The notes: a model not told the origin generated them from the letters alone. A DNA stretch of 14,511 nt from Candidatus Thorarchaeota archaeon (GCA_046758445.1 JBHIAE010000066.1:1-14511); one strand, 5' to 3'. Shown: positions 4,341 through 11,975, numbered from the stretch's first letter. Program-made: numbers and translations.

Positions 4341-4363
4341 GATTCGCGGACAGTTTTACTAGA
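4341..4363 (+). repeat. 23-bp intergenic repeat, copy 1 (GATTCGCGGACAGTTTTACTAGA)
   Basis: 22/23 identical to 10900-10922. It lies in the 39-bp gap between convergent stop codons. Confidence 0.9.
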
Positions 4364-4374
4364 TCATCTCAGGC

Positions 4375-4800
4375 TCACTCTATGTAGAGACGGGTCTTGC
4401 AGAAGGGACAGAGCACCACCTTGTCATCAACGGGAGTGGCATTGGAGAGTTCAAAGGACAGCCCACAGTCAGGACAACGATACATCTCTATTCCGCCGAC
4501 GTGTTCAGCAGGAAGTGCATGAGCACGCATTGTGGCGAGGATCTTATCATCTTCATTCACATCTGTGGGAGCAATTGGACGCCCCTGAGCCCACCTGTAA
4601 GCTGCATAGAGCAGAAACACAACCATCGGCACTAGAAAGACTATGTAGGTCAGATAGACATCTGGAGGTGCTGTGAGTATGGAACCAAAGACCGTGACCG
4701 AGCCTAGAATCAGAAGTAGTACGAAGAATGCCCAGCGTGCAGGGCTTGTCCTAGGTTCCTCCTGCTCGCCATAGTAATCGTAAGTGTCGTCTTCAATCAT
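4375..4800 (-). CDS. Two-TM membrane protein with C-terminal zinc ribbon
   Basis: Two hydrophobic helices followed by CPDC...CPFC. Confidence 0.85.
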   Translation of the reverse strand: MIEDDTYDYYGEQEEPRTSPARWAFFVLLLILGSVTVFGSILTAPPDVYLTYIVFLVPMVVFLLYAAYRWAQGRPIAPTDVNEDDKILATMRAHALPAEHVGGIEMYRCPDCGLSFELSNATPVDDKVVLCPFCKTRLYIE

Positions 4801-4864
4801 TGTAGGACCTGTCTGTGGTTCCCTTGACGGTGGATAAACTCTTCGTAGTGTATTGCTAAAGGTG

Positions 4865-4905
4865 AAACAAAAAGAGAAACGAACACGGGCCTTGCGGCCC
4901 GGTTC
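4865..4905 (-). terminator. Putative tuf terminator
   Basis: Minus strand GAAC-CGGGCC-GCAA-GGCCCG-T-GTTC hairpin (GNRA loop) followed by GTTTCTCTTTTTGTTT. Confidence 0.7.
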
Positions 4906-4923
4906 TTGTACTACTGAACAGAT

Positions 4924-6267
4924 CTACTCTTGCTTAGCCGCCTTCTTGGCTGCCTTCTTCTCAACCTTCTTGGCCTTGACCTTGGTCACGACACCGACTG
5001 CGACGGTCATGCCCATGTCTCGGACAGCGAACCTGCCGAGCTGTGGGAACTGCTTGTAGGTCTCAATGCACATCGGCTTGAGAGGTACAAGAGTAGCAAC
5101 CATTGACTCGCCCTTCTTGATGAAGTCGGGGTTCTCCTCGATGACCTGTCCGCTGCGTTGGTCGATCTTCTGGAGGATCTTTTCGAACCTGCAAGCGACC
5201 TGAGCGGTATGTGCGTGAATGACTGGGGTGTAACCCACAGTGATAGCAGTAGGGTGCTGGATGACCATTATCTGACCAGTGTACTCTGCCGCGACTGTTG
5301 GCGGCTTGTCCTCTGGACCAGCAACATCGCCACGACCGAGATCTTTCCTCTCGATGCCTCGAATGTTGAAGCCGATGTTGTCGCCAGGGACGGCCTCCTT
5401 GAGCTGCTCATGATGCATCTCAATTGTCTTGACCTCACCGGTCTTGTTCGGAGGCATGAAGGTTATTGTATCACCGGGCTTCATGACACCGGTCTCGACA
5501 CGGCCTACTGGGACTGTGCCGACACCCTTGATTGAGTACACGTCGTTGATTGGCAAGCGCAAGGGCTTCTTGATCGGCTTCGGTGGGAGTTTCACCTGAT
5601 CCAGGGCCTCAAGCAGAGAGGGGCCCTTGTACCATGGCGTGAGATCCTTACTGACCTCCTTCAGGTTGCAGGCATCGCCGATAGCGGCGGTCGGAATGAA
5701 TGGGATGCCATCAAGCTTGAATCCGATGCTCTTCAGGAAGCCTCCAACCTCTTCCTTCACCTCTTTGTACCTGTCTTCTTTGTACTTGACAGTGTCGTCG
5801 TCCATCTTGTTCACACAGACGATCAGAGATGGTACACCAAGGGTCATGGCAAGATATGCGTGCTCCTTTGTCTGGCCGCCTGGACCAACGCCAGCCTCAA
5901 ACTCACCACGCTTGGCTGACACAACAAGCAGACCAACATCAGCCTGAGATGCGCCTGTGATCATGTTCTTGATGAAGTCCTTGTGCCCAGGTGCATCGAT
6001 AATGGTGTAATAGAATTTCGATGTGATAAACTTGAAAAAGGCAATGTCGATTGTTAGGCCACGTTCTCTTTCTTCCTTCAACCTATCTAACGCGAACGCC
6101 CAAGCCCAGCTTGGACGTCCGAGTTTCTCAGCCTCGGCTTTATGTTGTTGGAATGTTCTTTCGTCAACCGCACCTGTTTCATACAACAGCCTGCCCGTCA
6201 TAGTGCTTTTTCCGTGGTCTACGTGCCCTATGACGACCAGGTTCAGGTGCTCTAATTGTTTACTCAT
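4924..6267 (-). CDS. tuf: Translation elongation factor EF-1alpha (aEF1A)
   Basis: Motifs [43 protein letters not shown] and GRFAVRDMG. The start is placed at ATG 6267 ([14 protein letters not shown]) because a GGTGA RBS precedes it. The ORF-track start at 6366 is over-extended. Confidence 0.98.
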
Positions 6268-6342
6268 TTCTGAATCACCACGTTTTTGACTTGCCCATCC
6301 ATTGAACGCTGGACGGACTTTTGTTGCCACCTTTGGGGACAC

Positions 6343-6356
6343 TTTTAATCGTTTCG
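6343..6356 (-). promoter_or_regulatory. Putative BRE/TATA promoter of tuf
   Basis: Minus strand CGAAACGA-TTAAAAG, about 75-90 bp upstream of the ATG. Confidence 0.5.
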
Positions 6357-6384
6357 ACAAGCTCACTTGACCAAGGAATAGCCA

Positions 6385-6632
6385 TCAGCTTCCAATTACC
6401 CACCCTGCCTCTTGGATGAGATAGTATATGATGCTTGAGGCCGCATCAAGGACAAACGTAACGTGAGCCATGATGTCCTTTCGGGTGGCTCCCATGTGGG
6501 CCAGGTAGGGTGAGGAAGCGGTTGGCATCCAAAAAAGCTGCATACCACATAGGCGACACTCTCTGCTTCTACCTCCCTGAGCCACTGTGGCATCTTGAGT
6601 CTATCTTGGTGTGCTTGGACAAGATGATTCAT
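6385..6632 (-). pseudogene. Frameshifted C-terminal fragment of an ArdC/MPTase-like (zincin-like) mobile-element protein
   Basis: One frame gives H...REVEAESVAYVVCSFFG and the -1 frame continues MPTASSPYLAHMGATRKDIMAHVTFVLDAASSII. Together they match the 'E.EAESVAY.VC..FG....S..YLA.W' pattern. The shift is at the T6 run (6531-6536). The N-terminal part and an intact HExxH are missing. Confidence 0.65.
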
Positions 6633-10574: not shown

Positions 10575-10899
10575 CTAGTTCACCAGGATGCCCTTCGATT
10601 GAGTATATATATCGACCATTATGCACTTTTGTGAAGTGAAGCTTGGTGGGGCGTCCATACATCCTGGTTTCGAATTCTAAGCTTTATGGGAGTTCAGAAT
10701 GTTTCATTAAGTCTTGTTAGCCCATCTGAGTGTTTTCTTGGACTAGTTGTAATCGCTTCTTGTCAGTACATGTATGCTTGCCTATGTCCTCTACAGACGA
10801 TATTGGTTCAGGATGTGAGGATGAATCATGATGAGTGGTTTGACTCACTGTTGAGCCTTTGTTACTGAGCTTGTTACGGCGCCACGAACTCGTGGGGTA

Positions 10900-10922
10900 G
10901 ATTCGCGGATAGTTTTACTAGA
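10900..10922 (+). repeat. 23-bp intergenic repeat, copy 2 (GATTCGCGGATAGTTTTACTAGA)
   Basis: Matches 4341-4363 (22/23) and 11953-11975 (21/23). Preceded by a small hairpin CCACGA-AC-TCGTGG (10882-10895). Confidence 0.9.
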
Positions 10923-10953
10923 ATGACCGTGATTCGGTCTTCTGAGCTACCAG

Positions 10954-11490
10954 CTATCCGAGCAAGCTAACTGTCCATCCCCGAATCTTGTCCCAGTCCC
11001 TTGAATCAATTCTCTCTGGGACCTCTTCATCGAAGCCCATTTGCTGCTTCAGAAGGCTCTCGACAAGCCTTCGAACGGCAAAGTTGTATTTCTTGAGGTC
11101 AAAGACTCCGGCGAAGAACGTGGTCGCAACTGGTATCAGACCTGGGATTTCCTCTACCACTTTGTCCAGATATTCGCTCTGAACCATATCGTGGTTCTTT
11201 GAATCAGTAGCGTATCCTGAAAGAACGAAGAGTGCCACTCTAGTCTTCGAAAGGCTCTCAAGGTTCTTCTTGATGAGTTCCAACGGCTCCTTCGTCCATC
11301 TTCCTGCCTGGATTCCGCTCCCTATGACCACTAGTTCGTAGCTCTGCAGGTCTTGAGGTATCTTGCCTTTTCTGAGATCAACCAGGTCCACATGACGCCC
11401 ATGTTCTTGGATCACGTTCTCCATTTCTTGGGCTACTTCAGCTGTGGATCCGTAACGTGAACCATAGCATACCAGAACTCTTTGAGTCAT
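10954..11490 (-). CDS. Flavodoxin-like protein (Flavodoxin_5 / HemG-like)
   Basis: FMN-binding loop VCYGSRYGSTAEVA, then YELVVIGSGIQAGRW, VALF and a C-terminal DSRDWDKIRGW. Confidence 0.9.
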   Translation of the reverse strand: MTQRVLVCYGSRYGSTAEVAQEMENVIQEHGRHVDLVDLRKGKIPQDLQSYELVVIGSGIQAGRWTKEPLELIKKNLESLSKTRVALFVLSGYATDSKNHDMVQSEYLDKVVEEIPGLIPVATTFFAGVFDLKKYNFAVRRLVESLLKQQMGFDEEVPERIDSRDWDKIRGWTVSLLG

Positions 11491-11500
11491 GAGGAGTTCG

Positions 11501-11514
11501 CGTCCTATGCCGGG
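11501..11514 (+). promoter_or_regulatory. Candidate operator, degenerate copy (CGTCCTATGCCGGG)
   Basis: 12/14 match to 13139-13152. It sits between the TATA-like ATAAAG (11515-11520, minus strand) and the flavodoxin ATG. Confidence 0.45.
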
Positions 11515-11556
11515 CTTTATGTATTGTGAAAACGATGAGTATCAATCTGAGAGTGA

Positions 11557-11946
11557 CTATCTCATCAGGTCAGGAACTGAGTCTGGTTGTTTGGTCAAAT
11601 CCTCTATCTTGTTCAGAGGGACCCACCCTTCATCTCCGAGGGAGGTCCTTGCCCATGCCCACCCACTCTCTTCACTCATGACGATTATCTCGTCCCCTAG
11701 ACGAACTGTCAGCTCTCGTGAAGTGTAGTCTTGAATGGATTGGAAGCGGTTTGAGTCTGATTCTGGATTCAGGTACGCTTTTGGAACCCATCCGTGGACC
11801 CCTGCGTCATTTCTACAGAAGAGCCATCCTTCCCACTCGGTCTCTCGCTCCTCACCCTCAACTGACTCTCCACCCTTGATTACCAATGGAATCTCGAATT
11901 CGCTTTCATGGTCTATGGTTACTCTTGCTATTCTCAATCGCTTCAC
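11557..11946 (-). CDS. Tandem (two-domain) Src-type SH3 protein
   Basis: GWLFC..GVHGWVPKAYL and QDYTSRELTVRLGDEI..SGWAWA..GDEGWVPLNKIE are two canonical SH3 signatures. Confidence 0.88.
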   Translation of the reverse strand: MKRLRIARVTIDHESEFEIPLVIKGGESVEGEERETEWEGWLFCRNDAGVHGWVPKAYLNPESDSNRFQSIQDYTSRELTVRLGDEIIVMSEESGWAWARTSLGDEGWVPLNKIEDLTKQPDSVPDLMR

Positions 11947-11952
11947 CCTATG

Positions 11953-11975
11953 AATCCGCGGATAGTTTTACTAGA
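11953..11975 (+). repeat. 23-bp intergenic repeat, copy 3 (AATCCGCGGATAGTTTTACTAGA)
   Basis: The 19-bp core is identical to copy 2. It fills most of the 41-bp gap between the desuccinylase stop and the SH3 start. Confidence 0.9.

Follow-up and report, generated by a model that had tools for sequence, protein, structure and literature searches.

RESULTS AND DISCUSSION

The three motif copies and the genes around them

The DNA analysed here, called the window in what follows, is the whole of a 14 511 nt contig (14.5 kb; JBHIAE010000066.1, contig C66) from the 3.25 Mb genome, in 113 contigs, of a Candidatus Thorarchaeota archaeon (GCA_046758445.1). It carries three copies of a 23 bp repeat, hereafter the motif, which an earlier reading of the same sequence (the original prediction) had proposed to be the recombination site of an integron-like gene-cassette system. 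As set out below, the copies are local members of a low-copy intergenic DNA signal that is conserved throughout a family of Thorarchaeota and is best read, tentatively, as promoter-type; a role as a cassette recombination site is not supported. The features on which the argument depends are as follows.

4341–4363, plus strand: motif copy 1, GATTCGCGGACAGTTTTACTAGA, in a 39 nt convergent spacer, with the DUF362 stop codon 5 nt before it and the zinc-ribbon stop codon 11 nt after it
10900–10922, plus strand: motif copy 2, GATTCGCGGATAGTTTTACTAGA, 31 nt past the flavodoxin stop codon and followed by a 325 nt spacer up to the next minus-strand gene
11953–11975, plus strand: motif copy 3, AATCCGCGGATAGTTTTACTAGA, 12 nt past the AstE-like stop codon, with the start of the SH3 open reading frame (ORF) 6 nt away
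11988–13019, minus strand: AstE/AspA-type deacylase (AstE-like) gene, which in relatives keeps the motif at its 3' end across at least three different gene neighbourhoods
11557–11946, minus strand: gene for a protein with two SH3 domains, whose start is too close to copy 3 for a separate promoter to fit between them
10954–11490, minus strand: Flavodoxin_5 (HemG-like) gene, the SH3/flavodoxin pair being bracketed by copies 2 and 3
6396–10574, minus strand: block of four genes without an assigned family (encoding 78, 296, 480 and 352 aa), flanked by copy 2 and the EF-1alpha gene
6342–6358, minus strand: core promoter of the EF-1alpha gene, GTCGAAACGATTAAAAG, comprising a B recognition element (BRE) and a TATA box, our in-genome yardstick for a strong promoter
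4924–6279, minus strand: gene for a canonical archaeal EF-1alpha (aEF-1alpha; TIGR00483, 632.7 bits)
4375–4800, minus strand: zinc-ribbon membrane protein gene, whose orthologues have the motif 10–15 nt past the stop codon
3256–4335, plus strand: DUF362 gene, lying between copy 1 and the control region of a major facilitator superfamily (MFS) gene in this genome only and not in relatives

Read in the direction of minus-strand transcription, the order is thus AstE-like gene, copy 3, SH3 gene, Flavodoxin_5 gene, copy 2, the four unknown genes, aEF-1alpha gene, zinc-ribbon gene and copy 1. Beyond copy 1 lie the DUF362 gene on the opposite strand, an MFS transporter gene and a gene for an immunoglobulin (Ig)-like surface protein, and beyond the AstE-like gene lie genes for an HTH_10 regulator and a lumazine-binding protein. 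The listed ORF of the aEF-1alpha gene extends to 6366, and its start is probably the ATG at 6279. The SH3 ORF starts with a GTG at 11946, the start codon that had been placed 6 bp from copy 3; an alternative TTG start at about 11934, preceded by a Shine–Dalgarno-like GGGTGA, is possible.

A search of the window placed an exact 19-mer, CGCGGAYAGTTTTACTAGA, at 4345–4363, 10904–10922 and 11957–11975, in each case on the plus strand, whereas no match was found in 200 shuffles of the window. The 23 nt register was recovered independently as a repeat family (D2) in a repeat search. The description of three near-identical, co-oriented intergenic copies therefore stands, as do their distances of 11, 31 and 12 nt to the stop codons of the minus-strand genes at 4375–4800, 10954–11490 and 11988–13019 and the bracketing of the SH3 and flavodoxin genes by copies 2 and 3. 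The flanks of the three copies do not align with each other. Copy 3 includes a 10 bp palindrome, ATCCGCGGAT, and no hairpin is common to the copies: the folding z-scores for copies 1, 2 and 3 were, for the minus strand, +0.82, −2.84 and −0.32 and, for the plus strand, +1.33, −2.46 and −0.03, and both low values are due to flank hairpins at copy 2 only. The repeat search revealed no inverted arms and no inverted partner of the motif in the window, which agrees with the earlier statement that an attC-like hairpin is lacking, and Rfam 15 gave no match at E ≤1 on either strand of the whole window. A tRNA or tmRNA fragment serving as an attachment site was rejected, as the window has no tRNA.

Occurrence of the motif in the genome and the family

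On the gene strand (minus in the window) the motif consists of a first box, TCTAGTAAAA, three variable bases and a second box, TCCGCGRAT or TTCGCC. The logo of 64 unique canonical instances reads a-y-t-TCTAGTAAAA-yyr-TCCGCG-r-A-T-t on this strand, the three spacer positions varying almost solely by transitions, and box 2 is a palindrome of 8–10 bp (TCCGCGGA / ATCCGCGGAT). A scan of the whole genome found the exact motif only at the three sites in the window, the weakest hit in the genome being one extra match with two mismatches inside an ORF on contig C30. The first box occurs eight times in the genome and is followed by N3-TYCGC in six of these (reversed control, 0). Including weaker matches, there are about six to eight family sites in the genome: three on C66, others on C4, C13, C25 and C100, and a degenerate copy on C2. 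Sub-words of the motif of at least 12 bases do not recur elsewhere in the genome beyond chance.

The motif is not private to this genome. It is present in 14 of the 16 other genomes of the genus that were searched and, in its canonical form with any spacer, in 52 of 86 family genomes representing nine of 16 genera, at one to six copies each (reversed-pattern control, about 0). A variant form, GGCGAANNNTTTTACTAGA, in which box 2 is TTCGCC or TTCGCA, was found in 61 of the 86 genomes and ten of the 16 genera, including five of the seven genera that are without the canonical form. A metagenome scan with a 22-mer yielded 13 more contigs.

Position of the motif relative to genes

We collected 124 unique instances together with their flanking ORFs. 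The genes of relatives are simple ORF calls made in this study, and distances to start codons are approximate. As many of the instances are orthologous, and hence not independent, distinct pairs of flanking families were also counted. Classified by neighbours, with the motif in its gene-strand orientation, the instances fall out as follows.

Tandem, co-oriented neighbours: 66 instances, 27 distinct flank-family pairs
Convergent neighbours: 31 instances, 19 distinct flank-family pairs
Tandem, reversed neighbours: 17 instances, 16 distinct flank-family pairs
Divergent neighbours: 8 instances, 5 distinct flank-family pairs

The 124 instances are intergenic, a few of them providing the stop codon through their own TAG. 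In 61 of 70 instances the canonical form runs in the same direction as the gene upstream of it, and it is usually found 0–15 nt past the stop codon of such a gene; in co-oriented tandem contexts the median gap between stop codon and motif is 12.5 nt, regardless of whether the following gene begins 6 or 400 nt further on or is convergent. Variant copies are of mixed orientation. The upstream genes are functionally unrelated and include those for AstE-like, SH3, flavodoxin, zinc-ribbon and DUF2334 proteins, a GFO/IDH/MocA oxidoreductase, an EamA transporter, an M24 peptidase and a TSP3-repeat protein. Past the stop codons of the first five of these the motif recurs in genome after genome, at orthologous sites.

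With M standing for the motif, two genera show the order AstE-M-{SH3, flavodoxin}-M-...-EF-1alpha-zinc-ribbon-M-MFS in modified form, and others show parts of it; in genus g5 the SH3 and flavodoxin genes are swapped. The stretch from the EamA gene to the EF-1alpha gene varies in gene content, with motif copies at the junctions, and in general the gene before the motif is kept and the neighbour beyond it often differs. At two loci, L013 (G003) and L022 (G016), the last 70–100 nt or so of the AstE-like gene remain between the EamA gene and an intact motif, 100–150 nt before the latter; here the AstE-like gene has been deleted, and its end has been retained together with the motif. The four unknown genes of the window (78, 296, 480 and 352 aa) gave no tblastn match (E 1e-5) in the compared loci of relatives, and in genome G012 an ORF of 352–353 aa follows the motif at the same place as in the window. 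A defence island was considered for this variable block and rejected, there being no PADLOC or NCBIfam hits. In relatives the motif before the MFS gene is followed first by a perfect palindrome, TCACAATTTGTGA, and then by the MFS gene itself (L016, L018, L023, L032 and L040), whereas in the window the DUF362 gene separates this palindrome (3224–3236) from copy 1. The palindrome is probably the operator of the MFS gene. The view that the flanking genes are unrelated accessory genes holds for their unrelated functions; not all are accessory, since the block includes a canonical aEF-1alpha gene, and the gene order largely recurs in relatives.

It is from this variability that site-specific recombination, at a cassette junction or an insertion hot spot, draws its appeal. 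The copies are direct repeats within the variable block between the EamA and EF-1alpha genes, gene content does change directly next to the motif, a point in favour of the original prediction, and the DUF362 gene has been inserted 5 nt from copy 1, which parts this copy from the TCACAATTTGTGA palindrome found behind the motif in relatives. A contig of G066 that resembles a mobile element (described below) carries three copies. Nevertheless, we regard recombination as very unlikely. A variable unit is not neatly delimited by a pair of sites; most sites occupy orthologous positions that are stable between genera, with one to six copies per genome, and many are single isolated sites outside any array. 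The swapped order of the SH3 and flavodoxin genes between two copies could not be produced by recombination between those copies, and inverted arms and a shared hairpin are lacking. Domain searches of the 15 ORFs of the window found no recombinase, in accord with the original prediction. The single tyrosine recombinase of the one-contig genome G004 lies about 190 kb from the motif cluster of that genome, and no such gene was detected in G020, a genome with several copies; in the present genome (G000) PF00589 matches lie on contigs other than the window. In several genera the motif recurs behind the corresponding genes (AstE-M, {SH3, flavodoxin}-M and zinc-ribbon-M). The present genome has no exact copy outside the three sites, and the gene order largely recurs in relatives; this is the pattern that the original prediction had itself named as contrary to its proposal, and it is partly on this ground that the cassette idea fails. 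Like integron attC sites, the motif lies 3' of ORFs in co-oriented repeats with variable gene content between them, but it has neither the imperfect inverted repeats (R''-L'' / L'-R') nor the folded hairpin of attC, no integrase or attI is nearby, and it is low-copy, orthologous and present also as isolated single sites. Its interpretation as the ends or footprints of a transposon fails for want of inverted partners and multicopy spread. Three exact copies and a few variants in the genome, with no inverted partner and no repetition of parts of the motif above chance, differ from what the ends of insertion sequences or miniature inverted-repeat transposable elements present, namely numerous scattered copies, terminal inverted repeats in pairs and duplicated target sites.

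Two loci in relatives deserve separate description. At L088 (G066:C246:1-11000) there are dense, small, co-directional ORFs without family matches, one product being weakly PCNA-like and one containing a weak zinc ribbon; this block resembles a virus or some other mobile element, two of its three motif copies are reversed relative to the genes, and Pfam shows no integrase and no winged-helix protein in it. At L091 (G068:C19) a stretch of about 150 nt that comprises the motif and, beside it, a possible stem–loop (GGTATTG...ATGATACC) has been duplicated locally, the two places being about 1.3 kb from each other. An RNA repeated beside two copies in G068 was accordingly rejected, being this local duplication.

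Resemblance of the motif to archaeal promoters

On the plus strand the layout of the motif is ATY-CGCGGA-YRR-TTTTACTAGA, which may be read as a BRE-like box (GCGGA, or GCGAA in the variant), three loosely constrained bases and a TATA-like TTTTAC. Layout and register match those of the genome's own tRNA promoters, for example GCGGAAGCTTTATCTCAG, GCGGAAAGCTTTATGTCAG and GATAGTCTTTTATC. With a weight matrix learned from 36 tRNA upstream regions (consensus AGCGAAAGCCTTATATGA), the motif scored 6.4–6.6 on the plus strand, against 1.8, 3.8 and −4.1 on the other strand, in a register that places GCGGA on the BRE and TTTTAC on the TATA box. Among random 45-mers the 95th percentile was 5.0 and the 99th percentile 8.1, and two promoters on which the matrix had not been trained, those of the EF-1alpha and flavodoxin genes, scored 12.3 and 11.6.

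We tentatively favour the view that the repeat is a DNA-level, promoter-type transcription signal specific to this Thorarchaeota family. Transcription would start about 15–25 nt past the TAGA end and proceed rightwards on the plus strand, with the BRE behind it; at archaeal core promoters the start lies about 22–27 nt from the TATA box, on its downstream side. Each of the three window copies would then face the 3' end of a minus-strand gene (zinc-ribbon, flavodoxin or AstE-like) and would either give rise to antisense transcripts that begin near its stop codon or keep an initiation complex in the path of read-through transcription. The motif itself, its conservation, its positions and its promoter-like layout are observed; we infer the binding of TATA-binding protein and transcription factor B (TFB), or of another factor, as well as the direction, the start sites and the effect on genes, from sequence. 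The invariant flanks go beyond what a basal promoter needs and suggest a dedicated regulator or a TFB paralogue; the motif would work most like an archaeal BRE/TATA promoter with an extra recognition code.

Support for a promoter-type signal comes from loci at which it faces genes in the sense direction. At several independent loci with varying upstream neighbours, genes begin 31–104 nt downstream of the motif (distances being approximate) with no better promoter present, and in several such places nothing else ahead of the gene resembles a promoter. A 483 aa gene 51 nt downstream and a NIPSNAP-like gene 64 nt downstream have no better promoter in between, a conserved 65 aa membrane ORF begins 32–35 nt downstream in five genomes, and a gene with a Shine–Dalgarno sequence begins 46 nt downstream in a mobile-element-like block. 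For a CesT-like gene 14–79 nt downstream, the motif scored 5.0–8.5 against −3.3 to 6.2 for the spacer at five loci, at one of which (L137) the spacer outscores the motif (6.2 against 5.0). At an operon that encodes a winged-helix protein, described below, the motif lies between divergent transcription units and beside their TATA boxes; it is probably untranscribed there, which argues for action on DNA. A promoter on the gene strand with TAGTAAAA as its TATA box was set aside, as it scores lower and has no BRE on the proper side, and is kept as a minor possibility only.

A number of observations weigh against a promoter-type signal. The motif scores are modest, 2.4–7.1 compared with 11.6–13.1 for strong promoters of the same genomes. 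About two-thirds of the contexts, including all three copies in the window, are antisense or between convergent genes, some convergent spacers are merely 25–50 nt long, and for the window copies and most canonical copies only the antisense of a gene end lies downstream. Pure antisense promoters conserved over many genera are unusual. Downstream of the motif we found no conserved antisense ORF, start and length being inconsistent, and no Rfam RNA. About 20 positions are near-invariant, more than a basal promoter needs, and the tight placement relative to stop codons, together with this near-invariance, fits a 3'-end signal at least as well. In short, the motif shares with archaeal BRE/TATA promoters its intergenic position, a BRE-like box rich in purines, a short spacer and a TATA-like box rich in A and T, but differs in that about 20 of 23 positions are near-invariant across loci and genera, in that most copies face the 3' end of a gene, and in scoring below strong local promoters. 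Antisense transcripts from archaeal promoter regions have been recorded by differential RNA sequencing in Pyrococcus furiosus (PMC6640164). Those cases involve one shared TATA box at gene 5' ends (PMC6640164), whereas the motif here is a separate conserved module at 3' ends.

A further reading, which we consider possible but doubtful, is that some genes end in an oriented, sequence-specific boundary signal: a promoter-like site to which the initiation machinery or a specialised factor binds, and which faces the oncoming polymerase and would either drive co-regulated 3'-end antisense RNAs or act as a roadblock. Taken as a whole, this proposal would make the same signal a normal promoter elsewhere, so that one factor could activate some genes and oppose others. 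Were it a roadblock, the site may act as Reb1 and TTF-I do in eukaryotes.

Terminators, roadblocks and RNA elements

The placement at gene ends is also what a polar terminator, roadblock or insulator would show, with a bound protein, or the plus-strand T4 tract and its GC-rich lead, halting RNA polymerase at the gene boundary. Such a site would end the transcript of the upstream gene, or would stop antisense or convergent transcription before it reaches that gene or the next promoter. The co-orientation of the canonical form with the upstream gene (61 of 70) and the median gap of 12.5 nt in co-oriented tandems irrespective of downstream context are in keeping with this, as are the survival of the gene-plus-motif unit through rearrangements, the T4 on both strands of variant copies (TAAAA...GCCTTTT) and the 19 distinct convergent flank pairs, in which the motif fills some spacers of 25–50 nt and no promoter is needed. 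However, archaeal intrinsic terminators use oligo-T (usually ≥5) on the coding strand, and this is absent: the gene strand reads TCTAGTAAAA..., its RNA has A4 and no U tract, T4 is on the opposite strand only, and there is no shared hairpin. A generic terminator scan gave a hit at copy 2 only, through the flank stem. An ordinary U-tract terminator does not need 20 invariant bases, and the 16 reversed tandem and five divergent flank pairs do not suit a terminator of co-oriented genes. In this genus, moreover, the SH3 gene starts 2–21 nt past the motif, directly behind a Shine–Dalgarno sequence and without room for a promoter of its own, so that transcription from the AstE-like gene must cross the motif, an argument against a strong terminator for the upstream gene. 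On balance we look on a terminator or roadblock of this kind as a doubtful, though not negligible, explanation.

In form there is a likeness to polar protein–DNA barriers. Reb1 and TTF-I, the latter acting at the 'Sal box', are eukaryotic terminators, and the Ter sites bound by Tus in Escherichia coli are 23 bp long, one of them lying in the promoter of the gene for the binding protein itself. The motif resembles such sites in being about 20 bp long, non-palindromic, oriented, present at a few places per genome, and located at gene ends or by promoters, and one copy lies upstream of the winged-helix gene as one Ter site lies by the gene of its binder. The likeness is one of form only, and no homologue of these binding proteins was identified. 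We know of no polar barrier system of the Reb1/TTF-I or Tus–Ter type in archaea.

Alternatively, the conserved entity may be RNA, with UCUAGUAAAAYYRUCCGCGRAUU in the minus-strand mRNA serving processing, stability or translational coupling, in the 3' untranslated region or between cistrons, through recognition by an RNA-binding protein or nuclease. The motif occurs in sense orientation 0–15 nt past the stop codons of at least nine unrelated gene families, in this genus it stands directly before the Shine–Dalgarno sequence of the SH3 gene inside a probable AstE–SH3–flavodoxin transcript, and its variable positions change almost solely by transitions. We nonetheless think an RNA element unlikely, as the neighbouring genes stand in reversed or divergent orientation to the motif in about one-third of the distinct contexts, the copy at the winged-helix operon appears between two divergent promoters, there is no shared fold and no Rfam match, and no complementary partner occurs in the genome, G-U pairing included. 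A guide or antisense partner acting in trans was likewise rejected (no sub-word of at least 12 bases beyond chance, and none with G-U pairs), and inspection of the sequence showed neither the CUGA D box of a C/D-box RNA nor the 3-4-3 geometry of a bulge–helix–bulge. Of the alternatives offered by the original prediction, a conserved RNA 3'-end or protein-binding signal pointed in the right direction, in that a conserved signal does lie at gene ends; its 3'-end and RNA versions rank, in our assessment, below the promoter-type signal.

The winged-helix locus, operators and replication-fork barriers

An operon comprising genes for a membrane protein and an Sso10a-like winged-helix protein (HTH_45; G000:C2:120022-120309 for the latter) is kept in all 16 genera (16/16). 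In most of them a copy of the motif, or a degenerate relative, lies 86 nt upstream of this operon; in the present genome this is TCTAGCAAGATTCTCCGCGGATT on contig C2. The locus invites the proposal that the motif is the operator of a sequence-specific regulator, without promoter activity of its own and with a small regulon, the Sso10a-like protein being the candidate binder. Box 2 is a palindrome of 8–10 bp, as preferred by dimeric regulators, and many copies lie 17–60 nt upstream of a BRE/TATA pair. Set against this, conservation of the winged-helix protein is no weaker in those genera whose site at this locus has decayed, and the boxes kept in all genera at the locus are GATGATTCA repeats and not the motif. 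Convergent spacers have no promoter to regulate, and the neighbouring genes have no common function. We therefore judge a pure operator to be improbable, and slightly more so than an RNA element. The Sso10a-like protein was rejected as the regulator for lack of co-variation with the motif, as was the product of the HTH_10 gene beside the AstE-like gene, which is not kept in the clusters of relatives. Regulon-specific archaeal operators are represented by the Thermococcales glycolytic motif, bound by TrmBL1/Tgr, and reportedly by the aCcr1 box of the Sulfolobales. They resemble the motif as short, conserved, lineage-specific sequences with a palindromic half and few loci per genome; they lie, however, in the promoters of functionally related genes, whereas the motif is often found in convergent spacers or past the stop codons of unrelated genes.

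Two further features were observed at the winged-helix locus. Divergent from the operon is a candidate small RNA of about 60–100 nt (L119:~1640-1740, plus strand, corresponding to G000:C2 at about 121.1–121.2 kb; also at L128, L132, L099, L095, L127 and L122), with a terminal helix, GAUGGAAG...CUUCCAUC, and an inner GC hairpin, GGCGGGG-loop-CCCCGCC. It is preceded by a TATA box at a distance of about 28 nt, and one genome has a T tract behind it; neither Rfam nor ARAGORN gave a match. Directly downstream of the operon lies a tRNA gene that is about 104 nt long and presumably contains an intron (L119:349-452, minus strand; L128:2114-2218, plus strand), which Rfam finds and ARAGORN misses.

The dimensions of the motif (23 bp, non-palindromic, low-copy and oriented) also call to mind a polar replication-fork barrier or chromosome-architecture site analogous to Tus–Ter. 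In the single-contig genome G004 (C1, 2.58 Mb) five of the six sites, between 0.95 and 1.36 Mb (952, 1290, 1293, 1294 and 1359 kb), face one way, and the sixth, at 2362 kb, faces the other. Two Orc1/Cdc6 genes lie at 783 and 1833 kb, and the three-copy cluster (1.290–1.294 Mb) is some 15 kb from their midpoint (1.308 Mb). This pattern comes from one genome, with origins assumed from gene positions, and the sites do not form two groups that oppose each other; in G064 the only site, a variant, is remote from any such midpoint, and the precise placement at stop codons would be left unexplained. A fork barrier seems to us extremely improbable.

Other features of the window

A perfect 6 bp GC hairpin, CGGGCC-TTGC-GGCCCG, occupies 4886–4901 in the short spacer between the EF-1alpha stop codon and the zinc-ribbon start codon. 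Two direct repeats of 23 nt (GCATTCTCGAATCGTAATGGTGG; 9080–9102 and 9172–9194), 96 % alike and 92 nt apart, lie in a 517 nt spacer between two of the unknown-family genes. Within the ORF for the Ig-like surface protein there is a direct repeat of 142 nt (1–142 and 277–418; 73 % identity, spacing 276), which probably reflects tandem Ig-type domains.

Significance for Asgard gene regulation

Asgard archaea are the closest prokaryotic relatives of eukaryotes, few of them can be grown, and to our knowledge almost nothing is known of the signals that regulate their genes. A tempting interpretation of the repeats in the window, that of a new attC-free integron, is very probably wrong and can be set aside. 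In its place there is a concrete target: a precisely defined and strongly conserved motif of 23–26 bp with a list of loci (about six to eight in this genome and more than 120 instances in the family), which may be used for binding assays, in vitro transcription and the re-analysis of metatranscriptomes. If the motif is merely a lineage-specific promoter or operator, it would be ordinary, yet still helpful for genome annotation. If it does mark oriented 3'-end boundaries or antisense promoters, it would represent an unusual coupling of gene activation and gene opposition, and an echo of the signals found at the ends of eukaryotic genes.

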